IMG/VR virus record: IMGVR_UViG_3300037189_002988
Coordinates: 1-64,000 of that record
DNA length: 64,000 nt
Direction: 5' to 3' (one strand)
From: a virus
The position numbers and the translations under genes are program-made. Positions 4,223 to 60,322 of this stretch are shown in pieces. Position 1 is the stretch's first letter; every line of letters starts with the position of its first letter. The notes beneath the pieces are model-generated. The model did not search any database, was not told where the DNA came from, and saw only the letters and a program-made list of their open reading frames with translations.

Positions 4223-5641
4223 ATGAGTAGAAAATTTTTAACGAACTTAGATCTTAATACCAATCAATTACTGAATGGTGTTATTCAAAATCTTGGAACA
4301 GATCCAGAAACTGGAAAAGCAGGTCAAGTTTATTTTAATACCTCAAATCAAAAATTAAAATTCTACAATGGCTCTGCTTCAGCATGGCAATTCGTAGGTG
4401 CTTCTAACGAAGAAATTGAAGATTTAATTGCACAATTAATTGATGCAGGAACTGGTATTTCTGTAAACTATAATGACGAAACAAGTAGTTTAGTTATTAC
4501 TAACACTGGTGTAACAGCCCTTGTTGGTACTGCAAACGAAATTGACGTATCTGCATCAACAGGTTCTGTAACACTAAGTTTACCATCAACAATTAATGCT
4601 AACACTACAGGAAACGCAGCAACTGCTTCTGCATTAGAAACAGCAAGAACAATCTCCCTAGGTGGAGATTTAAGTGGTAGTGCTAGTTTTAAAGGTGATC
4701 AAAATATCACAATTAATGCAACAGTTCAACCAAACTCTGTAGCACTAGGAACTGATACAACAGGTGACTATGTTGCATCTGCATCAGCAGGAACTGGTAT
4801 TAGTATTAGCGGAAGTGGCGAAGGTGCTGCTTTAACAATTACTAACACTGGCGTAACAAGTCTTTCTGGAACAAACAATGAAATTACTGTATCTGCATCA
4901 GCAGGTGCTGTACAAATTGGTTTGCCAGATAACGTAACAGTCGCTGGTGATTTAGTTGTAGACGGAAACTTAACAGTATCAGGTAGCACAACATACTTAA
5001 ATACAGCAACACTAACTGTAGAAGACAACATTGTTCTTCTTAACAGTAATGCCACAGGAACTCCTGTTGCAGATGCTGGTATTGAAGTAGAACGTGGAGA
5101 CGGACCTAATTCATCTTTTTATTGGGATGAATCAGAAGGTAAGTGGACTTCAAGTAACGGTGTAACAAATACTGCCGTATCGCTAGAAGGACACGGACAC
5201 TCTTCAATTAACATTAGTGACTTTCAAGAGGCCGTAGAAGATGTAGTTGGAGCAATGGCAACAGATTCTGGAACCATTGACTTTGCTTACACTGATAACG
5301 GAACAGGTGCTGGAACACTTAGTGCTTCCGTAGTACTTGCCGCATCTAATTCATACTTGTCAAGAGCAGCAGGATTAGCAGTAGATAAGTCAGCATTAGA
5401 AACAGCACTCGTAACAGATGGCTTCACAAAGAAGGCTTCTGCTAACGTTGGAAACGGTTCATCACTTTCATTTGCAATTACTCATAATCTAAACAGCAGA
5501 GATGTTGTTGTAAACGTTTATGATAATTCTTCTTTTGACACAGTAGAAACTGATGTTGTTAGAACAGACGCAAATACAGTAACTGTATCATTTGCAACAG
5601 CACCAACAAACAACGCATACCGCGTAGTTATCGTTGGATAG
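4223..5641 (+). CDS. Tail-fibre shaft protein
   Basis: S/T/G/N-rich beta repeats (ITNTGVT x2), VEDNIVLLN...AGIEVERG motif, C-terminal ITHNLN domain. Confidence 0.65.
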   Translation: MSRKFLTNLDLNTNQLLNGVIQNLGTDPETGKAGQVYFNTSNQKLKFYNGSASAWQFVGASNEEIEDLIAQLIDAGTGISVNYNDETSSLVITNTGVTALVGTANEIDVSASTGSVTLSLPSTINANTTGNAATASALETARTISLGGDLSGSASFKGDQNITINATVQPNSVALGTDTTGDYVASASAGTGISISGSGEGAALTITNTGVTSLSGTNNEITVSASAGAVQIGLPDNVTVAGDLVVDGNLTVSGSTTYLNTATLTVEDNIVLLNSNATGTPVADAGIEVERGDGPNSSFYWDESEGKWTSSNGVTNTAVSLEGHGHSSINISDFQEAVEDVVGAMATDSGTIDFAYTDNGTGAGTLSASVVLAASNSYLSRAAGLAVDKSALETALVTDGFTKKASANVGNGSSLSFAITHNLNSRDVVVNVYDNSSFDTVETDVVRTDANTVTVSFATAPTNNAYRVVIVG

Positions 5642-5654
5642 TATAAAATATATT

Positions 5655-5682
5655 GAGGGGGTAGTGAAACACCTACCCTCTC
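5655..5682 (+). other. Intergenic stem-loop (possible attenuator/processing site)
   Basis: gagggggtag...ctaccctctc stem with a GAAA-containing loop; no clear U-tract. Confidence 0.4.
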
Positions 5683-5697
5683 TAACTAAGGATTAAA

Positions 5698-8600
5698 ATG
5701 GCAAAAAGGTTTTTAACACCTACAGGTTTAGTGAGTTTAGCCTCAGATCCAGCAACTGGGTCAGAGGGTAATCTGTACTTTAATAATACCTCTGATGTCA
5801 TTAAAATATATAGAAATGGTGCTTGGGAAAACTTAGTACATACAAGTGAAGAAATACAAGATGCAGCATCAGGTCTTTTAGACCATAGTAATCATGTAAA
5901 CATAGAAGCAACATATGACGACAATAATAATCAAATAATTTTAGAAGCAGATTTATCATCAGTAGGAGCAACAGGATACTATGGATCTTTTTACCATAGT
6001 TCTTCTGCAATAATAAGTGCGTCTGCAACAACACAAGAAGTAGTAATTCCAATTAATACAACAGCAGAAGCAAATGGTGTATCAATTCAAAATAATATTT
6101 CAGGAAAACCAACAAGAATAAAATTTGCAAATGCTGGTGTTTACAATATTCAATTTTCAGTACAATTAGCAAATAGTAATAATACAATTCATAATGCTAC
6201 TATCTGGCTTAAAAAGAATGGAACTAATGTTCCTTCATCAAGTGGTCAAGTAACTGTACCAGAAAAACATGGAGGTGTTAATGGTCAAATAATTCAAGCA
6301 TGGAATTATGTAATGAGTTTAGCAGCAAATGATTTTATTGAATTTTATTTTCAAGTAGAAGATATAGGTATATTTATTGAAACAATTCCTGTTGGAACAA
6401 CACCAACAACTCCAGAAAGTCCAGCAATTATTGTTACAGCACAACAAATTACAAATACACTTGCTCCAGGATTTGGCGGTAGTGGAAGTTCATTCTATCT
6501 AAATGATCTATTAGATGTATCTATTATTAGTCCAGAGAATCATCAATTAGTAGCATTTAATCAAGAAACAGGATTATGGAAGAATTTACACCCCTCAGAA
6601 ATTAACTTAGCAACATTAACAAATTTAAACTCAGCAAGCACATCACTTCTTGCATCAGCATCAACACTTTATATTCCAAAGACTGATCAACAGTCAATAA
6701 TTAACACAGCATCAGCAGCAGCAGTAAACTATGTTGTTGATTCAGCACCAGGTGCACTAGATACTCTAAATGAATTAGCAGCAGCATTAAACGATGATGC
6801 AAACTTTGCTTCTACCGTTATAGGAACAATAGCATCATCATCTGCAGCAGCAGTATCATCAGCAGTTTCTTCAGCAAGTGCAAATACTGTATCTCAAATT
6901 AATGCTTTAACTACATCTGATATTGAAGAGGGTAGCAGACTATACTTTACAAATCAAAGATCTTTAACTACAGCATCAACTGCTTTAGTACATAGCAATC
7001 ATACAAATATTACTGCTACATACAACTCAGCAAGTAATCAAATTATATTAACAGGAAATGCTGGAGGTGGTGGAGCAGGTGGTGATGGTGCCTCTGTTAT
7101 ATATTCAACAGAACAACCAGATACAAGCCAACTCTCTATTGGTGATATATGGGTAGATAGTAACGCTTCTGTGGGGTATAGTGGAAGTTCTACTCCTTTT
7201 GTAAATCAACTTACATATTGGTTAGAAGATGATAATGGAAATCTATTACCAGATGCAGATAATGTTTACTCAGTAGGATCAAGTGCTTTTAGAGTAAAAG
7301 ACTTATATCTTGGTGCTTCATCTCTTTATATGCAAAATCCATCAAGTCCTAATCAAAATATTGCATTAACTATGGACTTAAATGGAAATATGCAAATTGG
7401 AAATCATAAGATTATTACTACTGGAAATGCTCAATCAAATCTAGACTTATCATCATATGCAACAAAACTTTATGCAAATTCAGCAAGTGCTTATGCTTTA
7501 AATTCAGCAAGTGCTTATACACAGTCACAACTTGACAGTGCATCATCAAATCTTACATCTTCAATAAATACAAAACTTTCTATACAATCAGCATCAACAA
7601 CATATGCTACAAAGGCAGAATTATCAAATGTTAATGTTGACTTATCAGCATACTTAAGTAAGGCTGAGGCTAGTGCAATGTATCAAAAACGTATTCCATA
7701 TTCATCTGCATCTCCTACCCCTACACAATTGGGTGATATGTGGGTTGATAATACAGGAACTGCTGCAATTTTAAATATTTGGGATGGAAATGAATGGAAG
7801 TATGAATCATATGTACCAACTCCAAATGTTCTGTCAATTCTTCCAGTTAGTTCAACATCAGCAGGAACTATTATAGATATTACTGGAGCAAACTTTGTAT
7901 CTGGTGCAACAGTACAGTTTATTGGAACAAATGGTACACCATATAATGCAACAGTTGTTCAAAGAGTTTCAGCAACATTACTAAAAGCAACCACACCAGC
8001 ACTTGCACAAGCATATGAACCATATAGTATTAAAGTTATAAACCCAAGTGGAAACTATGGAATATTGGCTGGAGCATTAGATGCTGGATCTACACCAGCA
8101 TGGATTACACCACAAGGATCTATAGGAACTCTTTACGATATTGAAAGAGGAATTAAAACATTTAATGTTAGTGCTAGTGATGCAGATTTACAAAGTCTTC
8201 AATATTCAATTGTTGGAGGAGCACTACCTGCTGGAATGATTTTAAGTGCATCTGCTGGAGTAATATCTGGATTAGCGTCTCCAGTTGTAAATGACACAAC
8301 ATATACATTTGATGTAAGAGCAAGTGATGGAATAAACTCATCAACCAGAACATTTAGTTTATTAATGAAAGCACCAGTAACAATAACATATACATCAGTT
8401 GGAAGCAACACATTTACTGCACCTACTGCATTAACTTATGTTAAAATTCTTCTAGTTGGTGGAGGTGGAGGTGCTGGAAGCAGTCGAGGAAATGGACCTG
8501 GCGGTAACGGTGGTGGTGGTGGTATTGTTTATAATCCATTAGTTGCTGTAACTGCTGGACAAACTTATTCATTAAACGTTGGTGGTGCAGGATCAGGTTC

Positions 8601-8931
8601 TGGATGTAATAATCAATCTGGATGTAGCGGTGGAGTAACAACAGGATTTGGTGGAACAGCAGGTGGTGGAGGTGGTGGTGTATCAGAACATAACGGAAAT
8701 TGTAACAGTGGTTGGGCTGGAACATCTTCAATGGTTGGAGCAACAGCACTTTATGAAGGTGGTTCTGGAGGATGTTCATTTGGTGCAGGTGGTGGAGGAA
8801 CACAATACTCAAACTCTGAATTTGGATCACCTACAACATTTGGTGGACAGTGTGCATCACAATATTATGGTGGTGGAGGATGTCACTCAGGTGGCGGCGG
8901 AGCACAGGGTATTATTAGGGTTAAATACTAA
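5698..8931 (+). CDS. Large tail-fibre protein with IPT/Ig-like domains and a C-terminal glycine-rich domain
   Basis: APGALDTLNELAAAL fibre motif, ITGANFVSGATV (IPT/TIG-like), GALPAGMIL...GVISG (putative Ig), C-terminal Gly-rich domain. Confidence 0.7.
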   Translation: MAKRFLTPTGLVSLASDPATGSEGNLYFNNTSDVIKIYRNGAWENLVHTSEEIQDAASGLLDHSNHVNIEATYDDNNNQIILEADLSSVGATGYYGSFYHSSSAIISASATTQEVVIPINTTAEANGVSIQNNISGKPTRIKFANAGVYNIQFSVQLANSNNTIHNATIWLKKNGTNVPSSSGQVTVPEKHGGVNGQIIQAWNYVMSLAANDFIEFYFQVEDIGIFIETIPVGTTPTTPESPAIIVTAQQITNTLAPGFGGSGSSFYLNDLLDVSIISPENHQLVAFNQETGLWKNLHPSEINLATLTNLNSASTSLLASASTLYIPKTDQQSIINTASAAAVNYVVDSAPGALDTLNELAAALNDDANFASTVIGTIASSSAAAVSSAVSSASANTVSQINALTTSDIEEGSRLYFTNQRSLTTASTALVHSNHTNITATYNSASNQIILTGNAGGGGAGGDGASVIYSTEQPDTSQLSIGDIWVDSNASVGYSGSSTPFVNQLTYWLEDDNGNLLPDADNVYSVGSSAFRVKDLYLGASSLYMQNPSSPNQNIALTMDLNGNMQIGNHKIITTGNAQSNLDLSSYATKLYANSASAYALNSASAYTQSQLDSASSNLTSSINTKLSIQSASTTYATKAELSNVNVDLSAYLSKAEASAMYQKRIPYSSASPTPTQLGDMWVDNTGTAAILNIWDGNEWKYESYVPTPNVLSILPVSSTSAGTIIDITGANFVSGATVQFIGTNGTPYNATVVQRVSATLLKATTPALAQAYEPYSIKVINPSGNYGILAGALDAGSTPAWITPQGSIGTLYDIERGIKTFNVSASDADLQSLQYSIVGGALPAGMILSASAGVISGLASPVVNDTTYTFDVRASDGINSSTRTFSLLMKAPVTITYTSVGSNTFTAPTALTYVKILLVGGGGGAGSSRGNGPGGNGGGGGIVYNPLVAVTAGQTYSLNVGGAGSGSGCNNQSGCSGGVTTGFGGTAGGGGGGVSEHNGNCNSGWAGTSSMVGATALYEGGSGGCSFGAGGGGTQYSNSEFGSPTTFGGQCASQYYGGGGCHSGGGGAQGIIRVKY

Positions 8932-11236: not shown

Positions 11237-12262
11237 TTGCCAGAAATTTATACTTCTGATGATATTACTGCATTACTTAAATTTGGAAATACTAGTGGGG
11301 TATATAGATATTTCTCTTATGCAATGCAAAATGATTTTACTAGAACAAAAACATATAATGGTATAAGTTATTTAAATTATTTAGAATCACTTGGATGGGA
11401 AATATATTTTCAATCAAATGCATTTTATGCATGTAAAGAATTTAATACTGCTGGAACAACAACAACAACTATAACACCATTTGAAAAAAATACTTTTGAT
11501 GTTTTCTGTCTTGCAGGAGGTGGCGGTGGCGGTGGACAACACGGTGGTGGTGGCGGTGCAGGTGGTTATCGTTTAACAACAAAAGTTTTTAATAAATCTA
11601 GTATATCTGTTACTGTTGGTGAAGGTGGTATAGGTGCTATATCGGGCAATGCAAATATAATGGGTGCTAACGGTGCCAACTCAGTTGTTGACGATATTGT
11701 TTCAATTGGTGGTGGCGGTGGAGGAACTCATAACAATGTTGGTTCTGGTGCTCCTGGAGGTTCTGGTGGCGGAGGAGCAATTGGACATAGTGGTGCTAAC
11801 GGTGATAATTTTACTTGGCGATCAAACAGTCAAAGAGGAACTCCTGGTTATGCAGTGACTGGTCAAGGAAATCATGGTGGTGGAGGTTGGCATTCTAGTC
11901 CAGCATATCCTGGTGGCGGTGGTGGAGGTGCTGGCTCAGTAGGAGTACAAAGAACTGGCAACGAAAACGGTGGGCCAGGTGGAACTGGTTTATCAAATAC
12001 AATTTTAGGATATACACGTTGGTTTGCTGGCGGCGGCGGTGGTTGGAATCATTCATACTATAGTGGAACTGGTGGGCTTGGTGGTGGAGGTTTAGGATTA
12101 CAACAGTCATCTTGGGTTAGTGATCATGCTAATGCTGCTCCAAATAGTGGCGGTGGCGGTGGCGGTGGTGGTCATAGTAATGGTATTCGGGGTGGCAATG
12201 GTGCAACTGGTATAGTTGTTATTAGAACTCAAATTGTTTATTCCGCAGGAGGTATTGGATAA
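11237..12262 (+). CDS. Glycine-rich domain protein (putative adhesin tip), TTG start
   Basis: Same Gly-rich scaffold; N-terminal domain paralogous to its neighbours. Confidence 0.7.
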   Translation: MPEIYTSDDITALLKFGNTSGVYRYFSYAMQNDFTRTKTYNGISYLNYLESLGWEIYFQSNAFYACKEFNTAGTTTTTITPFEKNTFDVFCLAGGGGGGGQHGGGGGAGGYRLTTKVFNKSSISVTVGEGGIGAISGNANIMGANGANSVVDDIVSIGGGGGGTHNNVGSGAPGGSGGGGAIGHSGANGDNFTWRSNSQRGTPGYAVTGQGNHGGGGWHSSPAYPGGGGGGAGSVGVQRTGNENGGPGGTGLSNTILGYTRWFAGGGGGWNHSYYSGTGGLGGGGLGLQQSSWVSDHANAAPNSGGGGGGGGHSNGIRGGNGATGIVVIRTQIVYSAGGIG

Positions 12263-13263
12263 TGCCAGATAATTTTTCCTCTTCAGAACTAGCAAGCGTA
12301 TTGCCTGCTGGAGCAAATCCAGCATTGTATAGATTTGTTACAACAAAAATTAATCAAGGTGTTTCAAAAACACAAATATTTAGTGCTAGTCCAACATTTA
12401 CTCAATGGATTCAAAGTTATGGATGGACCACATATGCTTCAGGTGCAAGTTTTTTTGCATACAAATCATTTACAAATACTGGATCACAAAACGTAGACTT
12501 ATCTCCATTTGTTGGGGGATATGCAGATGTCTTAATAGTTGGTGGTGGCGGTGGTGGAGGAAATCATCATGGCGGTGGAGGTGGAGGTGGTGGTTACATT
12601 TTTGAGTCTGGTATTTTAGTAGACACTAATAGTGTTCCTATAACAGTTGGTGCAGGTGGAAATTCTAGTCCATATAGTAGTGCTGCTCCAGGAGGTACAG
12701 GTGGCAATTCAAGATTTATGCATTTATTGGCTATAGGTGGCGGTGGTGGAGGTTCATATCAATGTGCTTACGGTAACGGAACTCCTGGTGGTTCAGGTGG
12801 TGGTGCTGCAATGGGAAACTCTTCTGGTGGCGGAGACACAATTGGAGAAAGAAGAGGTCACGGTGGTGCGGCTCAGTTAGGTCAAGGAAACTTTGGTGGA
12901 CATGGATATCATCACTCAAATTGGGGTGGCGGCGGAGGTGGTGGTGCAGGTGGTGTTGGAACTACCGTTAGTGGAAATAATGGTGGACCAGGTGGACCAG
13001 GTCTAGTAAATAGCATTACTGGTACAGCAACACATTACGCAGGAGGCGGTGGCGGACACGGTCACACTGCAAGTGCTCAAGGTGGAATTGGTGGTGGAGG
13101 ACTTGGTGCAAGCCATAGTCCAAACGTAACACCAGGAAATGGAACAGATGGTTTAGGTGGCGGCGGTGGCGGATCACATGCAAGTCCAAGTGGTTCAGCG
13201 GGAAGAGGGGGTAGTGGGATAGTTATAGTAAGATTTAGTTTTACTAATCCTACTTCATTTTAA
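12262..13263 (+). CDS. Glycine-rich domain protein (putative adhesin tip)
   Basis: Same scaffold, ends GGSGIVIVRF. Confidence 0.7.
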   Translation: MPDNFSSSELASVLPAGANPALYRFVTTKINQGVSKTQIFSASPTFTQWIQSYGWTTYASGASFFAYKSFTNTGSQNVDLSPFVGGYADVLIVGGGGGGGNHHGGGGGGGGYIFESGILVDTNSVPITVGAGGNSSPYSSAAPGGTGGNSRFMHLLAIGGGGGGSYQCAYGNGTPGGSGGGAAMGNSSGGGDTIGERRGHGGAAQLGQGNFGGHGYHHSNWGGGGGGGAGGVGTTVSGNNGGPGGPGLVNSITGTATHYAGGGGGHGHTASAQGGIGGGGLGASHSPNVTPGNGTDGLGGGGGGSHASPSGSAGRGGSGIVIVRFSFTNPTSF

Positions 13264-13265
13264 TT

Positions 13266-13664
13266 ATGACTGAAAAAGAAATAGAATTAAGAGAAATTGC
13301 CAGAACTAATTTAATTAATAACATAAGTTATGATTCTCTTGGAAATCCAATTGAATATACTGATGAAGAGTTAGATTTTAAAGTAGATCAAATTATAAAT
13401 TTTGAAAAGACTAATGTTATTAGATGGGAAGAATTAAGACAGTCTAGAAATAGAAGATTATTAAATTGTGATTGGACTCAGATAGCAGACGCACCCATTA
13501 CAGAGGAATTAAGGGCTGAATGGACGACTTACAGAAGAGCACTAAGGGATTTACCAGCCAATACAGAATTTCCTGCCTACGTTGATTTTCCTAGGTTTCC
13601 TGGCGAAGTAAGACCAGAAGATGAAGGTTTTGTTACAGATACAGTTCCAGGAGAAGGTGCATAA
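13266..13664 (+). CDS. Tail-fibre assembly chaperone
   Basis: LRQSRNRRLLNCDWTQIADAP...W..YR.ALRDLP motif. Confidence 0.75.
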   Translation: MTEKEIELREIARTNLINNISYDSLGNPIEYTDEELDFKVDQIINFEKTNVIRWEELRQSRNRRLLNCDWTQIADAPITEELRAEWTTYRRALRDLPANTEFPAYVDFPRFPGEVRPEDEGFVTDTVPGEGA

Positions 13665-14563
13665 TGGCATCAGCAACTATATCCCTAACAACTAGACCAG
13701 CGTATGTGTGGTCTGGGTCACAGTGGATTCCTGTAAATGATATAACTAATGTTGGTAACTATACATATGTTGCCTATTCATCAGCATCACCTTCAGATCC
13801 TAAGATTGGTTTGCTATGGGTAGACGCCGATTCTCAAATAAGTGGTTCAGATCACACACACACTGACTTAACAGAATTAATTGCTGCCTCAGCATCATTT
13901 GCAACATCTACTGAATTATTTAACTTTACTACTTCTAATAGTGCTTCTGTAAATACTATAAGTTCTTCTTTGACTACTTTGTCAAATAATGTTTCAACAA
14001 ACTATTTACAAAATACTACAGCATCAACAAACTACTTAAGCAAGACAGGTGCTTCTTCAGAATACCTAAGTAAGGTAGGTGCTTCTGCAGAATATGTTAA
14101 CTATGGAGCATCTGGACAAGAATTTATTCAAGACTTAATTGCTTCTTTATTTGCAAGTGCCTCAACTGCGGGGGTATCTGTAAGTTATGACGATGTTAAT
14201 AATAAAATATCCTTATTTGTAGATGACGATATTATTCCATTGGATAATTTACAAGGAAGATTTGACGGTATTGAAAATAGATTCTATGCAATGTATAGAG
14301 GAGAGGTATTTAATATAACTAATCCCTATAGACTATTTCTTACGATTAATGGTATAATACAAACAGTAGACTTTCCAGAATATGTGTGGAAATCAGAGTA
14401 CCCTAGAGATGGCTTTAGGATAGACTCAGACGGATATATAGCATTCTCAGAAAGACCACCTGCTGGGTCAACATTCGATGCTAGACTAATGATGGGATCG
14501 GCAACTACCACTAGAAACGACATATATCCATTTAAACCAATTGATATAATGTTGGGAGGATAA
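13664..14563 (+). CDS. Tail-fibre arm protein
   Basis: N-terminal RPAYVWSG..W, 10-aa YL....AS repeats, C-terminal INGIIQ domain. Confidence 0.55.
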   Translation: MASATISLTTRPAYVWSGSQWIPVNDITNVGNYTYVAYSSASPSDPKIGLLWVDADSQISGSDHTHTDLTELIAASASFATSTELFNFTTSNSASVNTISSSLTTLSNNVSTNYLQNTTASTNYLSKTGASSEYLSKVGASAEYVNYGASGQEFIQDLIASLFASASTAGVSVSYDDVNNKISLFVDDDIIPLDNLQGRFDGIENRFYAMYRGEVFNITNPYRLFLTINGIIQTVDFPEYVWKSEYPRDGFRIDSDGYIAFSERPPAGSTFDARLMMGSATTTRNDIYPFKPIDIMLGG

Positions 14564-14568: not shown

Positions 14569-17500
14569 ATGGCAAGAAAAGTAGTATTTGAAACACAATA
14601 TACATTTAACCCAGCAACTAAAACAATTGTATTTAATCACTATATACCAGCCGAAAGACTAATCTTAATAACAAACGTAACAAAAAATATTGTAATTTAT
14701 AATTTCTCAGACCCAAGTCTAAAGGGTACTGTATCAGCATCTGTTAACTCAAACATGGACGAATTAACTACAGTTGTATTAAACTATAACACTGCTGCAA
14801 TGTCTTCAACTGATAAGATATCTATCTTAGTTGATGAATATGATGAAAAATTTACTCCATCAGAATCATATGTAGATTCTACAAATAAACTTAGAGTAAC
14901 AACTCCACAAGCACTTATCGATACTGACTTTGAATACGGCCCACAAACTACAAAATGGGAAAATCTTGGATTAATTAATCAAAGACCATTTTCTTATACA
15001 ACACCAGCACCAATTCCAAACGTTTCAGCAATTACAATGAATACAAATTCAAGAGTTGTAACAGTGACACTTTCAAGTGGTACTGCACCAGCAAACGGAA
15101 CATCAATTTCTGTTTATGATACATATCTTTCAATTGCAAATGGTAACTTTACAGTAGAAAGCGGCGGTGGAACAAGTACATTTACATACACTGGTAGAGC
15201 AGTAAACTCAAGTGGAGTATCGTCAATTTTAGATACAAATAAAACTGTTATCTATTCTGGATTGGTTTATACAGGTGCTGCAATTGGTGGAGCACCAACA
15301 ATGTCTTATGCTGGTCAGGCAGTTTCTGTTACAACAACAGTTCCTCATGGACTATCAATTGGTAATGAAGTAAGTATTATTGGAGCAACAGCAACAACAA
15401 ATGCACCAAATGGAACATTTCCAGTTTGTACAATTACAAGTCCAACTCAATTTACATACTATACTTTAGCAGCACCAACTGGAACTCTTTCTGGTGCAGC
15501 AGCAACAGTATATATGGTTCCAAAATCACAATTCTTACACAGACCATTTGACGGTGGTGTTGTATTTTCAGCAAATGCCAACTCAAACAACGAGCAGGCT
15601 ATTCGTCAAACAAGACGTTATTTCCGTTATCAATCAGGTAAGGGTATGCAAATGTCTTCAGGAACAATTTTAAAACCAAATCTTCAACTTGACTCAATCA
15701 ACTCAGTTGGACAAACTGTAACAGTACAAACAAAAGATCAACATAACTTGCAACCAGGTGCAATTGTAAGAATTGGTGGATGTTTAGATCCAATCTATAA
15801 CGGAGACTATGCAGTTAGTTCAATCATTGGATATAACAAATTTCAATACACAATTCCAAGTGTACCAACATCATCAGTAGGTCAAGGACCATACTATGCA
15901 GCAGTAATTTCTTGGTACGGATGCTCAAATAAACTTGGTATTTTTGATGAACAAAATGGTTTATTCTTTGAATTTAATGGTCAGACATTATATGCAGTTC
16001 GTAGAAATTCTACATTCCAAATTTCTGGTAGAGTAACTGCAACAAATGGTTCAAATACTATTACACAAACAGATTCATCATTCCCAACATATTTTGCAAG
16101 ACAATTAAATGTTGGTAACTTTATTGTAGTTCGTGGGGTATCTTATAAAGTTCAAAGTATTGAAAGTGATACAAGCATGACAATAACACCTTCATATAGA
16201 GGATCAACAACACAATTTGCAATTGTTTCTAAAACAGTTGATACAAAGATTCCTCAATCACAGTGGAATATTGATAAGATGGATGGAACTGGACCATCTG
16301 GAATGTTACTAGATCTAGCAAAAATGCAAATGTTTTATATTGACTATTCTTGGTATGGTGCAGGGTATGTACGTTGGGGTATGCGTGGACGAGATGGAAA
16401 CGTAACTTATGTACATAAGATGCCAAATAATAATATTAATAATGAAGCATATATGCGTTCTGGTAACTTACCAGCACGTTATGAATCTTCAACAGATCCA
16501 ATTTACACATCCTTAACATCTAGCATGTCTAATACTGATACTGCTATGTATGTAAATGATACATCAAACTTTCCAGCAAGTGGAACATTGTGTGTAAGAG
16601 ATGGTTCTAAATATGAATATATTAATTATTCAGCAAAAACAACTACATCATTTACTGGATTAACAAGAGCACAATCTGGTTCAACAGGTGGAGTAACTGT
16701 ATCTATCACTTCAGGTACAAACACAGGAACAGTAGCAAGTGTTTCAGGTATTCAAGTTGGTCAAAGAGTTATTAGTGCAGATTTTCCAGATGGAACTTAT
16801 GTTGCAGCAATTAGTGGAACAACATTAACATTTACTCAGGCATCAACTGCAACAAACCCTACAGGTGTACTATTTGCACCAATGGGTATGGCTAGTCCAC
16901 AATCATTTACAATTTCTGCTACATCGCCAACAATGGTTGAATTAGCATTCCCATCATATTCATCTCAAATTTCACATTGGGGCACATCTGTAATTATGGA
17001 TGGTAGATATGATGATGATAAATCTTTGGTATTTACATATGGACAAACAGCATTTACCACTATTGCATCAGGTGCTTCAAGAGCACTATTTTCAATTCGT
17101 GTAGCACCATCTGTAGATAACGGTATTGCTGCAAACTTTGGAACACGTGAACTTGTTAATAGAATGCAGTTAGTTCTTCGTGCTCTAGATGTTTCTACAA
17201 AAAGTGCCTCTGCAAACATGCTTGTAACAGCAGTTCTTAATGGAACTCCAAGTTCTGCAACTGCATGGACAAATGCAATTAATAACGCTACAGGATTAGC
17301 AAATTCAAGTCTTGCACAAATTGCAAACTATGCAGCAGGATCAACAACAATTTCTGGTGGTGAAGTAACTGGAGGTTTCTTTGTTACTGGAACAACAAGC
17401 GTTGACTTAGAACGAGTTCGTGATCTTGGAAATAGCATTCTTGGCGGCGGCGGTACAAATGCAAATACAAACATATATCCAGATGGACCAGATGTTCTTA

Positions 17501-28446: not shown

Positions 28447-28476
28447 TTGACACCACTTGGATAATAGGTGTATAAT
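28447..28476 (+). promoter_or_regulatory. Sigma70/SigA-type promoter
   Basis: TTGACA-18 nt-TATAAT. Confidence 0.65.
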
Positions 28477-31090: not shown

Positions 31091-31119
31091 TTGACATAAA
31101 GTCATTACCCTGATATAAT
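31091..31119 (+). promoter_or_regulatory. Consensus sigma70/SigA promoter
   Basis: TTGACA-17 nt-TATAAT with TG extension. Confidence 0.75.
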
Positions 31120-47221: not shown

Positions 47222-50200
47222 TGGCTGAAGTTGTCAAGGGTATAGTTGATATTGAAATCAACACTGGCACTGCTGCAAAAGAATTAAAAGCATTACAACA
47301 ACAAATTAATGCTTTCAATCTTGCTATTAATAAAGGTAACACTTTTCAAACAGCCGCTGCTGCAAAATATTCATCTGAATTAAAAGATGTAATTAATGCA
47401 AGTAAATTCTTTACTGCTGAAACAGTAAGAATGCAAACTGCCGCAGGAGCACTTGACTCAACACTTAAAAAGGGTCAATCAACTCTTGGTAATTTCTTTA
47501 GTGCCAAATTCAACCGTAACAGTGCTTTATTTGCTGAAACAATGGGTCTTGCTGCAGAACGTGCAAGAACCATGCAAACTCAGTTTATTGCCACTTCTGG
47601 GTCCGCTAAAGGCATGCAAGAGGCTCTTGCTATTAGACCACTTGCTGCATTTAATTCTGAAATGGCTGTTGCAGCCCAAAGATCTCAAATTCTTAGCACA
47701 ATGTTCCGTCAGGGGACTACACATTTAATTAACTTTGGTAAAAACGTTCAGTGGGCTGGTCGCCAACTTATGGTTGGTTTTACATTACCACTTACTTCAT
47801 TTGGGATAGTTGCTGGAAAAACATTTGCAGACTTAGAAAAACAGGTGGTCTCATTTAAAAAGGTTTATGGAGATATTTTTACAACTCCAGGAGAATTGCA
47901 AGGAAACCTAGATGCTGTAATGGCTTTAGGAAAAGAATATACAAAATATGGAATTGCAGTAAAAGATACAGTAGGCTTGGCTGCACAAGCAGCAGCCGCT
48001 GGTCGTAGAAACAAAGACTTAACAGATGCAGTAACTGAAGCAACTAGATTATCAACTCTTGGTCAAATGGATCAAAACGAAGCATTAAAAACTACAATAG
48101 CATTACAAAGTGCTTTTAAATTATCTGGTCAAGAATTAACAAATGCAATTAACTTTTTAAACATTGTAGAAAACCAAACAGTAGTAAGCCTACAGGACTT
48201 GGCTGCAGCAATTCCTCGTGTAGCACCAGTAATTGTAGGTTTAGGTGGTGACGTAAAAGATTTATCAGTATTTTTAGCCGCTATGCAAGAAGGTGGTGTG
48301 TCAGCAGAACAAGGTGCTAACGCACTAAAGTCTGGTCTTGCATCTTTAATTAATCCTTCTAGAGCAGCAAAAGAAACTTTGGGTCAACTAGGAATTAACA
48401 TGGAATATATTGTTAATCAAAATAGAGGCGACCTAATGGGTACAGTTACGGCATTCAGTAGAGCATTGTCAACACTTGATGATTTTACAAGACAGCAAGC
48501 ACTAGAAAAAATATTTGGTAAATATCAATACGCAAGACTTGGTGCGTTGTTTGATAATCTAACTCGTCAAGGATCACAAGCACAGCAGGTGATGGATGCA
48601 GCAGGTTTTTCAGTAGAACAAATGGCATCATCTGCGGATAAAGAATTAAAAACAATTGAAGAATCATTTGGTGTTCAACTTACTGCCGCTATTGAAAAAT
48701 TTAAATTAGCAATCGCCCCAGTTGGTCAAATGTTCTTACAAATGGCAATTCCAGTAGTAAATTTCTTCACAAAGATAGTAGAAGGATTTAATAATCTACC
48801 AGATTTTACTAAAAGATTTGCAGCATTAGCAACAATTATTACAGGACTTGTAATTCCAGCAGGAACTATGTTCTTTGGTTTATTAATGAACTTAAGTGGT
48901 ACCCTTGCAAAATTAATGCAGGGTGTTGGAATATTTACTAAAGGAACACTTAAAGGTGGAATTCTTGGTGGTATTCAGGCTGTAAGTCAGTCCATGAAGT
49001 ATATGTCACTTCAAGAATTAGATTCAGCACTTGCTGCTAAACAACTAGGTACAGCAACTATGTCAGTCAATGATGCATTACTTGCTCAAGTAAATTCAGC
49101 ACAAGGTGCTCGTCAAGCAATTAATGGACTGGCAGATACATATGGGATATTGATTACAAGAATGGCAGAAGCAGCATCTATGTCTAAGTTTACACTTGGT
49201 ACACCAGGTGCAGCAATGCAAATGGCACAAACAAGAAATATTAAAGGTGGATTCCCAACAAAGAAATTTGCAAGTGGTGGAGTTGTTCCAGGAACTGGAA
49301 ATCAAGATACTGTACCAGCAATGCTTACACCAGGTGAGTTTGTTGTAAATAAAAAAGCAACTAGTTCAATTGGAACAAGTTTCTTAAGAATGTTAAATGG
49401 TGGAAAAGTTCGTGGGTATAATGATGGTGGATTCTTTAGTGATTATGAAAATATGCAAAAAGAAAATAATGGTGTAGGAAATAAATATACAAAGATTATT
49501 TCAGGTCAATATAGTGATCCAAATGTTTCATTTAGTCAACAACCATTTGAAATTGGAAATGCTCCTTCAGCATTGCTAGATGAAATGTTAAAAGAACTAA
49601 ACTTAACACATAATAAATATACAAGATTTATATCTCCTATGCCTAGATTTAAACCAGCAGCAGGAAGTTTAGCAAAAAGTTTAATCGGTGCAAGTAAAGA
49701 ATATGATTTTAATAATAGATTAAGAACAGGTACAGCAACAAGAGCAGAAGTTGGTGGATTCTTTTTAGGAAATAGAAGAGTTCATGGAGGGTCATCAGCA
49801 ATAGTTAGTCCATTCAAATACCTTCTAGATGAAGCAGGAATAACAGATCCAAAGGTTGAAAAAGAATTAGGAAGAATGGCACACAAAATATTACTGCAAA
49901 AGGTAAAGGCTGGTCAAACCGTAGATGATAAAATGTTTTCTAAAATATTTAATCAAGCAGTAGATAGAGTAGGTGCAAGTGTTCCAGATAAACAAAAATT
50001 AGGATTTGCTAGAGCAGCACTTGGCCAACAAACTGGAGAATCAAGAGTAAGTGGACGAGTTGCTGGATTATTAAAAGTTTTGCCAAATAAAATTAGAAGA
50101 ATTCCTGGAATGAGAAGAAGCACCTATGTTTATACTGGCAGTTCAGGAAGCATTAAATTTAGTCCAGGTCAAACTAGGTCATCTGGTGGATCTGGATATC

Positions 50201-53172
50201 AAACAATGCCTCAGTATGAGGGTTATAACAAAGGACATGTGCAAACATTTGCCAAAGGTGGATCAGTACCTTCACTATTAACACCTGGAGAATTTGTAGT
50301 AGGAAAAGAAGCAGCAGCAAAAAATAGACCATTCTTAGAAGCATTAAATAGTGGAATGATAAACAAGTATGCAGTTGGTGGAGATGTTATGTATGGTCCA
50401 CAAACAAGACGTCAAGCAGCAATTACATCATTTAAGGGTGGACTAGGAACTGCAGGAACAGTAGCAGCAGGTGCATCAATACCATTAATGTTTGCTGGAC
50501 AAATAATGGCACAAAGTTCAAATCAATTTGCTGCATCAATAGGAAGTTTTGTAAATTCAATGACTCCAGCACTATTTGGATTGCAGGTGCTCGGACCACT
50601 TCTTCCTAAGTTAGCAAATCCAATTGGCCTTGCAATCGGTGCTACCGCAGCACTTGCTTATGGAACATATAAAGTAGTAGCACAAATTAAAAAGTTAGAA
50701 GACTCTGGTGCTGCATTAACTAGAGCAATGTATGGCTCATCAAAAACAGTTGATCAAATGGCTGCAGCATTTGGAAGACAAACAGCAACTCAACAAGTTA
50801 CATCTACATTGGCACAAAGAGTTGGTGGTGCAGTTAGTCAACCAGCAGCAGAGGCTGCTAATCAATTTGTTGGAACTGATGCAGGAAAACAATTGATTGC
50901 TGATATTGAATTAGTTAAAAAGGCTGGTGGAGATACTATTGCCGCTCTAAAGAATCAACTAGCAAGAAGCGTTGTATCTGGTGCTATTACAGCAGAGGAA
51001 GCCAGGGGTGTAGCAATTGAAATTGGAAAAACTCTTAATGATCAACAATTAGCAGTAAATGTATCTGCTCAATTAACACAATTAATAGGACAAAATGGTG
51101 AATTAATTAAGGGTAATGAAATAGATATTATTGGAAAAATAACTCCTACAGTTGATATGACACAGGTAAATGCAATTACTGAACAAATGTTTGCTCAAAA
51201 TACTTCTGGATTCTGGGGTGGTCTTGCAAAAATATTTACTGATGATGATGTAGCAAAGAATAAAATTGCTGTTAATTTAATTGCAGAAAGCACAATTCAA
51301 GCATTTAAAACATCAGAAGAATCAGTGTCAAACTTTAAACTCGCAGTTTTAGATGGATCAATGAGTCTTGAAGAATATAATAGAAAAACAAATGAATTAG
51401 GAAGAACAAGTCAACAAACAGCACAAGGTGGACTTGATGCAATTGCAAATAAACTTAAAGTTACAAAAGGTGAATTAAATAATCTTGCAAATCAAAAAAG
51501 TGTAGTTGGTGGAAGAGGTGGCTCTGCACTTGTTCCAACTGGAACTGCTAAGTTATTAGAGGCAGAATTAAAGAAAACAAAAACAGCAGCACAGTCAGCA
51601 TTAAAGAATATGGGTCTTACAGACACCATGGTTGAACAAATTAGCAAAGGTCTTTCTTCTGAAAACTTTGTAACCCAAATGGAACAATTTGGAATGCTTG
51701 CTGGCGGAGCATTAACTGATGAAATGGAAATTAAACTTGCAGAAATGCTTGGAAAAGGAAAATATTATTTTGACAACTTATTAAACCCAGGAGGAAAAGG
51801 TGGTATCCCAGGAGCAGATACTGGAGGAGGACTTGGTGGAGATGGCACAGAAGGGGAAAAGTCAGCACTTCAACTATTATTAGAACGTATTGCATTAACA
51901 AAAAAACAAACCGCTGCAATATCTGGATTAGTTGCTAATGGATTAAAACCAGAAGCAGCCGCTGCATTGAGTGCTGAAGAAGCAACACAACTTTATAATA
52001 AATCTAAAAAAGAACAATCAAAAATTATTGAAACAATAAATAATGATTCTATTAGACAAAGAGTATTAGCAGCAGCAGCATTAACTGATGATCAAAAATC
52101 AATTAATTTAAATAATCTTAAAATTCAAGGTATGAACTTAGAAATTGCACAAAATCAAAAACAAATTGATCAAGTAACTAGATTAAATGAATTAGATACT
52201 AGACAAGTATCTATTAGACAACGTGCATTAGATATTTTAGGAAAGAAAGAAAAATCAGTAAATGATTTATATGCTAATAGAACAAAGGCTTTAGACGCAG
52301 TTGCTCAAGCAAATGAAAGAGCAAATCAACAACAAAGAAATTCTATTGCACTTGCTAATGCTTTAACCAGTGGAGACTTTGGTGCTGCTGCTACAGCCGC
52401 TGCACAGATGACATCAGACTCAGCATCAAATCAAATTCAAGATGCAAAGACAGCATTAGAAGCACAACGTCAAGCAGAACTTAATGCACTTACTACAGAA
52501 GTTAATGGTAAATTATTAACAAGGGCAGAAATAGAAGCACAAATAGATACATATAATGAAAATATTTATCAAAGAACACAAAGCACACTTCAATATGAAG
52601 ATAATATATATACTATAAAATCTAAAATGGCAGAACTTGAAAGAGAAAATGATTTAATTCAACAAAGAGTTGCAACTGCACAAGTTCAAGCAGAAGCATC
52701 TATGGCTAATCAAGAAAAATATTCAAAGAGTATTAGAGACTATTATGCACAAGTTCTTGAAATTATGAATAAGATGGGTGGAAAAGGAAAAGGTCAAACA
52801 GCAGCCTATGGTGGAACAATTAAAAAAATGGCTTTTGGAAATGTAGTTCCAGGAACTGGAATGACAGATAAAGTTCCAGCACTACTAACACCTGGAGAGT
52901 TTGTTGTTAGAAAGTCTGTTGCAGAAGCAAATATGCCATTATTAAAGTCATTAAACAGTAATGTATTTGGTGCAGGAATGAGTGTTGGATCTCCAAACAT
53001 ATCACCAGTTGATGCTACAACGTCTGTTTCAAACGTATCGGCACCAGTGTATAATTATAATGTAAACGTTAATGTTGCAGATACAAATGCATCTCCAAAT
53101 GAAATTGCAGATGTTGTAATGAATAGAATTAGAATGACAAAAGATAGAAGCGTCAGAGGAAACAGATACTAA
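47221..53172 (+). CDS. Tape measure protein
   Basis: 1983 aa, Ala-rich helical; TP901-like core; TM segments; three TPGEFVV motifs. Confidence 0.9.
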   Translation: MAEVVKGIVDIEINTGTAAKELKALQQQINAFNLAINKGNTFQTAAAAKYSSELKDVINASKFFTAETVRMQTAAGALDSTLKKGQSTLGNFFSAKFNRNSALFAETMGLAAERARTMQTQFIATSGSAKGMQEALAIRPLAAFNSEMAVAAQRSQILSTMFRQGTTHLINFGKNVQWAGRQLMVGFTLPLTSFGIVAGKTFADLEKQVVSFKKVYGDIFTTPGELQGNLDAVMALGKEYTKYGIAVKDTVGLAAQAAAAGRRNKDLTDAVTEATRLSTLGQMDQNEALKTTIALQSAFKLSGQELTNAINFLNIVENQTVVSLQDLAAAIPRVAPVIVGLGGDVKDLSVFLAAMQEGGVSAEQGANALKSGLASLINPSRAAKETLGQLGINMEYIVNQNRGDLMGTVTAFSRALSTLDDFTRQQALEKIFGKYQYARLGALFDNLTRQGSQAQQVMDAAGFSVEQMASSADKELKTIEESFGVQLTAAIEKFKLAIAPVGQMFLQMAIPVVNFFTKIVEGFNNLPDFTKRFAALATIITGLVIPAGTMFFGLLMNLSGTLAKLMQGVGIFTKGTLKGGILGGIQAVSQSMKYMSLQELDSALAAKQLGTATMSVNDALLAQVNSAQGARQAINGLADTYGILITRMAEAASMSKFTLGTPGAAMQMAQTRNIKGGFPTKKFASGGVVPGTGNQDTVPAMLTPGEFVVNKKATSSIGTSFLRMLNGGKVRGYNDGGFFSDYENMQKENNGVGNKYTKIISGQYSDPNVSFSQQPFEIGNAPSALLDEMLKELNLTHNKYTRFISPMPRFKPAAGSLAKSLIGASKEYDFNNRLRTGTATRAEVGGFFLGNRRVHGGSSAIVSPFKYLLDEAGITDPKVEKELGRMAHKILLQKVKAGQTVDDKMFSKIFNQAVDRVGASVPDKQKLGFARAALGQQTGESRVSGRVAGLLKVLPNKIRRIPGMRRSTYVYTGSSGSIKFSPGQTRSSGGSGYQTMPQYEGYNKGHVQTFAKGGSVPSLLTPGEFVVGKEAAAKNRPFLEALNSGMINKYAVGGDVMYGPQTRRQAAITSFKGGLGTAGTVAAGASIPLMFAGQIMAQSSNQFAASIGSFVNSMTPALFGLQVLGPLLPKLANPIGLAIGATAALAYGTYKVVAQIKKLEDSGAALTRAMYGSSKTVDQMAAAFGRQTATQQVTSTLAQRVGGAVSQPAAEAANQFVGTDAGKQLIADIELVKKAGGDTIAALKNQLARSVVSGAITAEEARGVAIEIGKTLNDQQLAVNVSAQLTQLIGQNGELIKGNEIDIIGKITPTVDMTQVNAITEQMFAQNTSGFWGGLAKIFTDDDVAKNKIAVNLIAESTIQAFKTSEESVSNFKLAVLDGSMSLEEYNRKTNELGRTSQQTAQGGLDAIANKLKVTKGELNNLANQKSVVGGRGGSALVPTGTAKLLEAELKKTKTAAQSALKNMGLTDTMVEQISKGLSSENFVTQMEQFGMLAGGALTDEMEIKLAEMLGKGKYYFDNLLNPGGKGGIPGADTGGGLGGDGTEGEKSALQLLLERIALTKKQTAAISGLVANGLKPEAAAALSAEEATQLYNKSKKEQSKIIETINNDSIRQRVLAAAALTDDQKSINLNNLKIQGMNLEIAQNQKQIDQVTRLNELDTRQVSIRQRALDILGKKEKSVNDLYANRTKALDAVAQANERANQQQRNSIALANALTSGDFGAAATAAAQMTSDSASNQIQDAKTALEAQRQAELNALTTEVNGKLLTRAEIEAQIDTYNENIYQRTQSTLQYEDNIYTIKSKMAELERENDLIQQRVATAQVQAEASMANQEKYSKSIRDYYAQVLEIMNKMGGKGKGQTAAYGGTIKKMAFGNVVPGTGMTDKVPALLTPGEFVVRKSVAEANMPLLKSLNSNVFGAGMSVGSPNISPVDATTSVSNVSAPVYNYNVNVNVADTNASPNEIADVVMNRIRMTKDRSVRGNRY

Positions 53173-58081: not shown

Positions 58082-58761
58082 TGGCAAAAAAAGATAAAGA
58101 AAAGTCTGTAGCATCTAACGCGATTGCTGCTGCCTCGCTTACAGAAAAACAAAGAACTAACCTTCAAAAAGATCTAAAAAAATATGCTAAGTCTGGTAAT
58201 AATGTTACAAAGGCAGAACTTGCTAAGATTCAATCAAAGATAAATAAGTATACAAAAGCACTTACTGCAGAAGCAACAGTTTCAGTGCCTTCACTTCCTT
58301 CATTTCCAGATATTTCATCTACAGGAACAACATCTATAAAACTTCCAGAAAAAGATAATGTTCTTTCCCTTACGAATAACAATGTTGATGAAGCAACAAT
58401 TATAGCGATGGTTTTTGAAAAACTAGGTGCTGTAGAGTTAACTAAGTTTACAAGAACTGACACGGTAGAGGGAATAAATCCTTATTACAATATAATATCT
58501 AATCTAAGTACTATTAAGAAAGAGTTTGATCCTTCAAACCTTGTTGCATCTCAAAAATCAGATACCTCTTTATATAATGCATTTTCTATTAAACTATCTA
58601 ATAAAATACCTGGAGATCAATACCTAGCAGATAGAGCGTTAGATAACTATATCTACATAGATGCAGATGGAAATCTAATTATTGAACTAGACAATATGAC
58701 TCCAGACGAACTGGTAGAAGTAGAAATAGACACAAATGGTACAATTGTAGAGGTGAGATAA
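58081..58761 (+). CDS. Tail-region hypothetical protein
   Basis: Translationally coupled in the tail operon. Confidence 0.5.
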   Translation: MAKKDKEKSVASNAIAAASLTEKQRTNLQKDLKKYAKSGNNVTKAELAKIQSKINKYTKALTAEATVSVPSLPSFPDISSTGTTSIKLPEKDNVLSLTNNNVDEATIIAMVFEKLGAVELTKFTRTDTVEGINPYYNIISNLSTIKKEFDPSNLVASQKSDTSLYNAFSIKLSNKIPGDQYLADRALDNYIYIDADGNLIIELDNMTPDELVEVEIDTNGTIVEVR

Positions 58762-59873
58762 TGATAACTAATGATGGAAAACAAATCGTAGCAAAGTTTA
58801 TGCTTGGTCAAGCACCTACCTTTGCCTCATATATCGCAGCAGGATGCGGTCCAGAGCCACTAATTACTGGAGAGTCAGCATCTGTATCACTGACAAAAAA
58901 GTCACTAGATTTTGAGGTTTTTAGAGTTCCTATTTTATCAAAAGGTTTTATTAAAGAAGATGGGGTAGAAAAACTAGTTTTTAAAGCAGAAATGCCAAAC
59001 GATCAAAGATATAAGATATCTGAAGTAGGAGTATATCCTGGTGCAAACAATGCTGTTGCTGGAAGATATGATAGTAAATTACTTATAACATTTTCAACAG
59101 CAGAAGCATGGACATATTCAGATGGTTCAAGTTCTTCAGCAGTTCCTTATCCAAACATTCCAATTGACAATGGAAATACAAGTGCAAGTATAAATGCAAG
59201 CACTGAAAAGTTTTTATTTATTAACTCAGATTCTACAATATTTAATGATCAGTCAAGACAGAATAGACAAGAGCCACCAAGGTATCTAAATAGATCATTG
59301 CTAGTTTCTGGTAGTTCATCATACATAGGTTCAGGATATACTGTAAATGCTGGATCAAAATATTTAGAAAACTCTGCAATATCTTTTGATTTAAGTCAAA
59401 ACCTTCCAGATGATGAAGTAAAACTTGCTTTTAGTTTATTAAGTAGACAAGCAGCAACCAATACAAATCCAGACAGTGTAAAAATTATTCTACAATTTAT
59501 TAATAACCTATCTGGTATAAATACAGCACCACCTGCTGCAACAGCAAAAATAGATTTAACATCTGCCAATATCGGGTCAAATAGGTATCAGGTTGTAACT
59601 AGGACAATATCTCAATTTGCTGCTGACCAATCATTTTCATGGGCGAATATCAACATGGTTAGAATTTATGTTTCTACACTGGTAGGTGGAGTGCCATCTA
59701 ATGACTACTTTGTTTTACTTGATGGAATGAGAATAGATAACGTTACGGCAATTAACCCATTATACTCACTGGTCGGGTATAACATAATTAAGACAGACGA
59801 TGGACTACCAATTTTAAAGGGTGAAAATACAAATAACTATATTGAATATAGATTTGGCATAGGTGTCTCCTAA
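58761..59873 (+). CDS. Baseplate/tail protein
   Basis: MITNDGK...YIA.G.G...L.FE..R.PI...I.EVG.Y pattern. Confidence 0.55.
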   Translation: MITNDGKQIVAKFMLGQAPTFASYIAAGCGPEPLITGESASVSLTKKSLDFEVFRVPILSKGFIKEDGVEKLVFKAEMPNDQRYKISEVGVYPGANNAVAGRYDSKLLITFSTAEAWTYSDGSSSSAVPYPNIPIDNGNTSASINASTEKFLFINSDSTIFNDQSRQNRQEPPRYLNRSLLVSGSSSYIGSGYTVNAGSKYLENSAISFDLSQNLPDDEVKLAFSLLSRQAATNTNPDSVKIILQFINNLSGINTAPPAATAKIDLTSANIGSNRYQVVTRTISQFAADQSFSWANINMVRIYVSTLVGGVPSNDYFVLLDGMRIDNVTAINPLYSLVGYNIIKTDDGLPILKGENTNNYIEYRFGIGVS

Positions 59874-60322
59874 TGGCAAAAGTTATTATTCCTGTAGATA
59901 AACTTCCATTTCCAGGAAAAGACGGTAAGCATAAAATCAGATTTAGAATTACAACAAAAGATTATAATGAAATTTCTGAATGGTCTCCAATAGTATTGTT
60001 AAATAGTTCTGGCCAAGTCGTATCAGCAAGTGCTGGATATTCATATGACGTATCAACCTCAACATCTGGAACAAAGATGATCAATATAACATGGCAAGAT
60101 GTTCATTCCAGTGTTGATAAAAATAGTCATGATGTATTTGTCAAATGGAGTTATTCATCTGTATTTCAATATATCGGAAGAGAGGCTGGAAATACAACTA
60201 CCATAATGGTTCCAGTAACAGCCTCAACTGCAGTTGTTAAGGTTCAATTACCTTCGTACCCAACCCCACCAGAAGAAAGCAACTTATTTAAACTTTTTCA
60301 GACACCAGTAATAACCCTATAG
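59873..60322 (+). CDS. Tail-region beta protein (FN3-like)
   Basis: S.WSP motif; translationally coupled. Confidence 0.45.
   Translation: MAKVIIPVDKLPFPGKDGKHKIRFRITTKDYNEISEWSPIVLLNSSGQVVSASAGYSYDVSTSTSGTKMINITWQDVHSSVDKNSHDVFVKWSYSSVFQYIGREAGNTTTIMVPVTASTAVVKVQLPSYPTPPEESNLFKLFQTPVITL

Follow-up and report, generated by a model that had tools for sequence, protein, structure and literature searches.

Cytoplasmic glycosyltransferases (GTs) of the GT4 type glycosylate serine residues in the SASASAST-type repeats of serine-rich adhesins (PMC2920850, PMC6973325, PMC5578698), and PMC12363180 states, with reference to Freeman 2023, that mycobacteriophages glycosylate virion proteins with GTs of their own. 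Our analysis of a 64,000-nucleotide stretch of viral DNA (hereafter the window), the first 64 kilobases (kb) of the 80.7 kb linear virus contig IMGVR_UViG_3300037189_002988 (G000; GC content 35.5%), showed that the tripeptide Ser-Ala-Ser (SAS) is over-represented in the tail-side virion proteins of this phage and its clade, and that its excess is co-distributed with a 363-amino acid GT encoded at 31144-32235 on the plus strand. A sequence-only reading of the window had proposed that SAS is an acceptor tag for this GT, possibly with carbamoyl decoration by the product of a gene at 26849; the enrichment, the restriction to tail, fibre and neck proteins and the co-occurrence with the GT speak for this proposal, whereas the GT turns out not to be sufficient for the excess and the carbamoyl part falls away. 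To our knowledge, chemical proof that phage particles bear glycosylated proteins is confined to a few actinobacteriophages, and we know of no sequence rule for phage glycosylation sites in general use. Our literature searches returned no report of a SAS sequon in phages.

The proposed system resembles that of the mycobacteriophages in its phage-encoded soluble GT, the proposed targets of which are virion proteins made in the cytoplasm, and the GT is conserved here with the structural module. It differs in that it is read here from sequence alone, whereas Freeman et al. in 2023 reportedly showed glycosylation chemically on both the capsid and tail proteins of Che8, Corndog and Myrna; in that the head is devoid of the motif; and in that a discrete tripeptide is spread over tail and fibre proteins in the presence of a single GT4-like gene. 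The GtfA/GtfB system, which primes PsrP-type adhesins with O-GlcNAc, likewise relies on a cytoplasmic GT-B/GT4 enzyme, the targets of which are serine residues in an S-A-S setting, modified ahead of export or assembly. Unlike those adhesins, with their hundreds of tandem repeats, the proteins studied here carry isolated SAS sites and no long Ser-rich tandem domain; no GtfB-like partner, extra acceptor-binding domain or accessory Sec system was found here, and GtfA is not among the Foldseek matches listed for the phage enzyme. In the SdgB/SdgA system (PDB 7vfl and related entries), which acts on the Ser-Asp repeats of staphylococcal adhesins, a GT4 enzyme also reads a very short Ser-containing repeat, but SdgB has about 500 amino acids and an additional domain, and in the phage proteins Asp and other charged residues are depleted beside SAS.

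A Ser-Ala-Ser excess in tail-side virion proteins

The by-eye count of the sequence-only reading proved exact: there are 55 SAS tripeptides in 20 open reading frames (ORFs), with 12 in the ORF starting at 5698, nine in that at 18955 and six in that at 4223, and none in the halogenase, carbamoyltransferase, GT, NrdJ, DnaB, portal, protease or capsid proteins. With figures given here and below as observed/expected, the expectation being calculated from the composition of each protein, the excess in the window is 3.7x (55/14.7, z 10.5), and only GGG (178 vs 66 expected) is more over-represented among all tripeptides. The control tripeptides SGS (30/19.5, 1.5x), STS (9/16.0, 0.6x) and TAT (17/13.6, 1.25x) are flat, and the permuted tripeptides SSA and ASS stand at 27/14.7 (1.8x) and 17/14.7 (1.15x). 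Shuffling within blocks of 10 residues yields 17.8±3.7 SAS and within blocks of 10 to 50 residues 16-18 ± 4, with a maximum of 29; local Ser/Ala richness is thus insufficient to account for the excess, and an artefact of composition or low complexity can be discarded.

The signal lies at the protein level, because the 55 sites are encoded by 22 different 9-mers with bulk-like codon use, and identical codons for the first and third Ser are not in excess. The sole tandem DNA repeat underlying SAS sites, of which it explains a few, is found at 19480-19568 (period 30, three copies) and, as the sequence-only reading had it, SAS is not a DNA repeat outside this element. The mixed codons also dispose of slippage or a DNA motif as explanations. 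In the three minus-strand frames, most of which is non-coding sequence in this DNA, SAS occurs 33 times vs 18 expected (about 1.8x).

Hundreds of related contigs are present in IMG/VR, and we compared G000 with 19 other long contigs (10, then 9 more fetched; 20 examined in all), whose ORFs were called mechanically and which are 33-89% complete according to CheckV. Eleven contigs form one siphovirus clade (lineage A, G000-G005 and G015-G019), five sister contigs without the GT, with capsids about 55% identical to that of G000, constitute the outgroup (G006-G010), and three are myoviruses (lineage B, G011-G013; loci L221-L233). The whole-contig SAS ratio is 2.5-3.4 in eight clade contigs (G001-G004 and G016-G019), whose capsids are at least 77% identical to that of G000, vs 0.4-1.2 in the five outgroup contigs. 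Two clade contigs score lower, G005 (1.7), which is without the fibre region because the contig stops at the GT, and G015 (1.5). Over 80 capsid-centred loci, the ratio drops with capsid divergence from 3.7 to 2.5, 1.6 and then 0.94. Homopolymers aside, no tripeptide is more over-represented in the clade than SAS (234/76, z 18), vs 42/47 in the outgroup; of the homopolymers, PPP occurs 99 times vs 11 expected in contigs G000-G005 and 10 times vs 10 in the outgroup. The lineage specificity that the sequence-only reading had marked for checking is therefore borne out, the clade being enriched and its GT-less sister lineage not.

When ORFs were assigned to classes by their G000 orthologue, the excess in the 11 clade contigs was found to be greatest in the orthologues of a 1181-amino acid protein encoded at 35133-38678 (38/6.4, 5.9x, vs 2/2.6, 0.8x, in the five outgroup contigs), followed by the fibre-region homologues (236/45.0, 5.3x, vs 4/3.5) and the neck, tail and baseplate proteins (110/42.3, 2.6x, vs 13/16.5). 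The portal, protease and capsid proteins of the head contain a single SAS (1/5.6, 0.2x, vs 0/2.4) and the replication proteins no excess (15/20.3, 0.7x, vs 5/6.8). The excess therefore marks tail-side virion proteins, vertically inherited orthologues included. It is not a generic property of phage fibres, since the outgroup orthologues of the fibre, 35133 and neck-tail-baseplate proteins score 0.8-1.1x and a set of six fibre proteins from cyanophage S-RSM4 gives 6/3.8.

SAS sites are also gained repeatedly at new positions. In alignments of 14 orthologous families, the 11 clade genomes show 65 distinct SAS columns vs 9 in the 5 outgroup genomes; 32 of the 65 are private to one genome and one is common to nine. 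Many sites lie in variable, indel-rich or inserted loops, such as a loop insertion of the tube-position protein, missing from the outgroup, which reads SSAST, GSASV or GSASA depending on the member. This combination of conservation and repeated gain indicates selection on the motif itself. A neutral history, in which SAS-rich modules were duplicated or shuffled within the clade or Ser/Ala mutation was biased without selection on the motif, could draw on the many fibre genes that are mosaic paralogues, on the roughly 17 of the 55 window sites that lie in recognisably repeated contexts and on the one 30-nucleotide tandem repeat. We nevertheless consider it highly improbable: about 40 sites vs 15-18 expected are left once repeated contexts are removed, the 65 columns were gained in vertically inherited tail orthologues, the codons are heterogeneous, and Ser/Ala interconversion would raise SSA, ASS and ASA equally, which is not what we see.

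The specificity of the signal is equally marked across the clade contigs. S-x-S is raised for x = A only (3.1x) and x-A-x for SAS only, while SGS, TGS, SAT, TAS and TAT remain at the outgroup level (1.1-1.7x), as do STS, SSA and ASS. A general alternation of small residues, for instance along a strand, is disfavoured because it would raise more than one tripeptide, and it can be set aside with SAS alone being raised. ASA was rejected as a second motif, since isolated ASA is at expectation and its excess comes from overlap with SAS (SASA, ASAS). Alternating Ser/Ala runs number 386 at length 3, 131 at length 4, 15 at length 5 and none beyond. Beside SAS, Lys, Glu and Asp are depleted, and Ala, Val, Pro or Thr is found at +1. 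SAS is thus a real and specific short motif, restricted to the putatively exposed, tail-side surface of the virion and under positive selection on tail, baseplate and fibre proteins and on the 35133 protein.

The glycosyltransferase and its distribution

The AlphaFold model of the 31144-32235 product, built from a 45-sequence alignment, has a pLDDT of 96.8 and a pTM of 0.94 and consists of two Rossmann-like domains in a GT-B topology. Its Foldseek matches are MshA, BshA, PimA, PglA and GlgM (probability 1.00, TM-scores 0.6-0.7), and the protein O-GTs SdgB (rank 32 and below) and GtfC appear at lower ranks. On the strength of this model, we are confident that the protein is a GT-B/GT4-like enzyme. 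It passes no curated family threshold (the NCBIfam TuaH and BgsA matches are far under their cut-offs) and a PDB sequence search gave no match, but precomputed tables assign PF13524 or PF13692 to some of its homologues. On phage-like contigs, its close homologues number more than 1000, and a representative library gave 5753 matches. Across 45 homologues, down to 30% identity, 21 columns are invariant, among them K274, S275, K278, E281 and E296, which are candidates for the C-terminal nucleotide-sugar binding and catalytic residues of an E-x7-E-type region. A GT profile search revealed no second GT-like ORF.

The same profile matches every clade contig that reaches the site (G003 stops just short of it and G005 inside the GT), and, at a threshold as lax as E = 10, still finds nothing in the outgroup contigs G006-G010. 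The gene is truly missing at this locus in G007 and G008, because their fibre genes directly adjoin the RNR gene and no GT intervenes. We also screened for genes that occur in six or more clade contigs, are missing from the whole outgroup and recur in each of the four independent GT-bearing contigs, and the GT was the sole gene retained.

The second lineage in which GT and SAS occur together is that of the myoviruses G011-G013, which have a sheath, a baseplate wedge and a major capsid protein unrelated to that of G000, and replication genes only about 25% identical to those of G000. Their GT is 53-55% identical to that of G000 and lies beside fibre modules held in common with it. Their virion blocks score 45/20.1 (2.2x, p 1e-6) with flat controls, vs 6/13.5 (0.45x) for the rest of the genomes, and 15 lineage-B loci pool to 63/35.8. 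In both lineages A and B the GT sits between the fibre cluster and the head genes, and it adjoins fibre-module homologues in loci L150, L151 and L156. The GT and several small fibre-module proteins are 50-55% identical between lineages A and B (window regions 3860-4204, 4223-5641, 23274-23642, 28833-29807 and 31144-32235), and the GT appears to travel with fibre modules. Module sharing alone does not bring SAS, because the outgroup also has fibre modules in common with G000 (56-63% identity) and yet shows no excess.

The carbamoyltransferase encoded at 26849-28399 on the minus strand is a genuine member of its family (Carbam_trans_N PF16861 at 6e-57, Carbam_trans_C PF02543 at 2e-22, and a partial NodU match), but the 19 other long contigs, SAS-rich or not, yielded no homologue. 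Since it is found in G000 only, one contig of the 20 examined, it lies outside any conserved system and can be dismissed as a component of this one, contrary to the carbamoyl decoration first envisaged. The gene is located inside the fibre cluster on the opposite strand and looks like a recent insertion.

What might read the motif

A motif recognised by an enzyme fits these observations best, and the GT is the one candidate enzyme with a matching distribution. Our leading reading, held tentatively and with somewhat less than even confidence, is that SAS is a phage O-glycosylation acceptor read by the 31144 GT. The phage's own cytoplasmic GT4-type enzyme would attach a sugar to a Ser of the motif in freshly synthesised virion proteins, either ahead of assembly or in its course, and the outcome would be a tail decorated with glycan. 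It is possible, and we put this more cautiously still, that SAS is a minimal O-glycosylation sequon whose small GT4 enzyme moves horizontally with tail-fibre modules between siphoviruses and myoviruses sharing one aquatic host pool.

Several observations weigh against the acceptor reading. The Pfam match of the GT to PF13524 falls just short of the cut-off (24.4 vs 25 bits), the GT4 fold predicted for it is silent on the acceptor, with top structural matches that act on small molecules and lipids, and the enzyme has no counterpart of the additional domains for acceptor binding, or of the partner subunit, that GtfA/GtfB or SdgB possess. Replication proteins score 0.74x in clade and outgroup alike, giving no sign that off-target sites are avoided. 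The co-occurrence of SAS excess and GT, which stands in two unrelated lineages (about 3x in lineage A and 2.2x in the virion blocks of lineage B) and is matched by the absence of both in the sister lineage (0.9x), does not hold everywhere: contig G014 (GC content 0.54, roughly one-third complete) encodes a member of the same GT subfamily and scores 4/10.0 (0.4x), with one SAS vs about 3.4 expected in its four large Ser/Ala-rich proteins, and loci with GTs about 40% identical pool to 17/12.4 (1.4x), only L151 (8/2.7) being raised. The presence of the GT is thus not sufficient for a SAS excess. Independent lineages are few, moreover, with about two positive ones set against a single negative sister lineage, and shared ancestry, host or habitat could therefore yield the same pattern; a search for further independent GT lineages via P0121 and P0124 found none in viral contigs.

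In a reading that we consider distinctly unlikely, SAS is recognised by some other factor (a modifying enzyme of the host, another phage enzyme encoded on the missing 30% or so of the genome, a chaperone for assembly or a component of the host surface) and its link to the GT is coincidental, or indirect through a shared host and mobile fibre modules. The insufficiency of the GT would agree with it, as would the fibre modules that lineages A and B exchange at about 50-55% identity, a sign of a common host pool. Judging by how complete CheckV rates the relatives, the genome probably measures about 110 kb, which makes the 80.7 kb contig incomplete, and other enzymes may have gone unseen. Such a factor is harder to reconcile with the outgroup, which shares fibre modules with G000 at 56-63% identity without any excess, and no other clade-specific enzyme was found in contigs of up to 94 kb, estimated to be 87% complete.

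A further set of points against the acceptor reading comes from the sites themselves, and bears on whether SAS could be a structural preference of the clade's tail and fibre architecture, for instance at a turn or strand start in trimeric shafts and loops, with no modification at all and the GT acting elsewhere, such as on the host envelope or DNA. Several SAS tripeptides precede the P..P..G.LW.D plug motif, which is widespread and in other phages is preceded by SSAP, STAP or SEAP. Residues 127-167 of the 4223 protein match a repeat of the Dec protein (PDB 6e3c), with GSASF at the homologous place in both. Of the six SAS sites in the 4223 family, four show plain conservation, being invariant in 117-120 of 120 homologues, and sit in a repeated [DEN]-V-SAS-[AT]-G unit; the remaining two vary (GAS, GAT, SAT), and three further SAS columns occur in homologues only. 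The AlphaFold model of the 4223 protein is too poor (pLDDT 57.8) for SAS exposure to be mapped, with a pLDDT below 50 over residues 96-187, which include the SAS at 110, 153 and 186, and of about 50 around the SAS at 224.

The conserved unit and the Dec-like site are what a structural preference would produce, and it would also accommodate the depletion of charged residues near SAS, the roughly one fifth of clade sites that belong to a 10-residue SAS-x-T-Y-L-T shaft repeat or, by a similar count, to this repeat or the SAS-P plug motif, the GT-bearing contigs without SAS excess, and the cell-wall biosynthesis label that JGI gives to some GT homologues, together with the weak TuaH and BgsA matches. 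We judge it unlikely. Outgroup neck, tube and baseplate orthologues with the same folds have no excess (13/16.5 vs 110/42.3 in the clade), sites turn over rapidly in indel-rich loops, and Thr, Gly and Val variants equally fit for a strand or turn are not raised. The same excess is found, besides, in a myovirus with different structural proteins, its major capsid protein included. Generic fibre-motif sites thus account for part of the SAS total but not for the contrast between the clade and its outgroup.

Gene context and significance

The structural genes of the window encode a portal, a prohead protease, an HK97-type capsid protein, neck proteins, a tube-position protein and baseplate proteins, and the fibre gene cluster spans 4223-30870, with eight genes that contain a Gly_rich_2 domain. 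Other genes encode a Trp-halogenase homologue, the NodU/CmcH-type carbamoyltransferase on the minus strand, the GT, a lysin-like protein and NrdJ, and the contig continues 3' of the window with DnaB, a primase, the Pol III alpha subunit, RecA and the large terminase. We found no close cultured phage, the top capsid identity being 41%, to Streptomyces phages.

All SAS-bearing genes are on the plus strand. In the fibre region, the fibre or minor-tail-like protein at 4223-5641 (six SAS) matches PHROG minor tail, tail fibre and decoration families, and the 1077-amino acid tail fibre at 5698-8931 (12 SAS) matches the tail collar fibre gp4 and the Pam3 cyanophage fibre in PDB sequence searches. The latter ends in a C-terminal Gly_rich_2 tip, which is the part that matches the cyanophage Pam3 fibre protein; this tip domain (PF21722) is also found in eight ORFs within 8949-30553. 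Among these are the Gly_rich_2 fibre protein at 12262-13263 and the Gly_rich_2 proteins at 25816-26595 and 29807-30553, with one SAS each. The fibre protein at 13664-14563 has four SAS, one of them in a YS-SAS-P...G..W.D plug motif. That at 18955-20439 has nine, five of which lie in a 10-residue SAS-S-T-Y-L-T repeat, and its gene contains the 30-nucleotide tandem repeat described above. Single sites are found in the small fibre-region proteins at 17587-18156 and 20440-20775 and in the fibre-region proteins at 22719-23243 and 24279-24854, and three in the fibre-region protein at 28833-29477. The 1002-amino acid virion structural protein at 14569-17577 (two SAS; phrog_5838) shares 45% identity along its entire length with structural proteins from T4-like cyanophages (S-RSM4, S-RIM44, Syn1), which suggests a cyanobacterial host for G000 and an exchange of receptor-binding proteins between this siphovirus and myoviruses.

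Upstream of the portal gene, the 1181-amino acid protein at 35133-38678 (three SAS) is probably an exposed component of the virion, because its orthologue family is the most SAS-enriched of all. It gave no Pfam, PHROG or NCBIfam match; a protein atlas points to viral ConA-like lectin (Laminin_G_3) proteins, a lead only. Further downstream, SAS occurs twice in the neck or adaptor-position protein at 43152-44036, once in the neck-region protein at 44037-44489 and twice in the tail tube-position protein at 45813-46460, which has an Ig-like domain and carries one of its sites in the loop insertion missing from the outgroup. The tape-measure-size protein at 47221-53172 (1983 amino acids) contains one SAS and is not enriched. 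The baseplate or tail protein at 58761-59873 (two SAS) and the baseplate-region protein at 59873-60322 (one SAS) show 13 and 8 distinct SAS sites in the clade, respectively, vs one each in the outgroup.

The GT is flanked by a 74-amino acid ORF and by the convergent gene of the lysin-like protein (32232-32741, minus strand; SLT and aggregation-promoting-factor C-terminal domains), whose position is held by a different 192-amino acid ORF in other clade members. A promoter-like site with a perfect TTGACA-17-TATAAT arrangement lies at 31091-31119 on the plus strand, 25 nucleotides upstream of the GT. It is one of four perfect TTGACA-N16-18-TATAAT sites in the window, vs 0.21 expected by chance; the others, at 2838-2866 and 3104-3133 on the minus strand and at 28447-28476 on the plus strand, upstream of the 28833 gene, are of the same sigma-70 type, and together the four border blocks of accessory and fibre genes. 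The Trp-halogenase family protein at 1154-2752 (PF04820, 6e-110) has homologues among the relatives only in outgroup contig G008, in two copies.

One candidate enzyme of 363 amino acids is matched here with a three-residue signature, and this enzyme and short fragments bearing SAS make up a small pair that can be tested without phage culture. Were the acceptor reading to be refuted, SAS would stay an unexplained, lineage-specific constraint on tail proteins. If the wider sequon reading is true, the tails and fibres of entire clades of abundant uncultured phages would be coated with sugar, and the attachment sites of these sugars would be predictable from sequence alone. With the acceptor reading confirmed, glycan-coated virion surfaces could be read from metagenomes, which would bear on host recognition, on resistance to proteases and grazers and on the stickiness of phage particles in natural waters.

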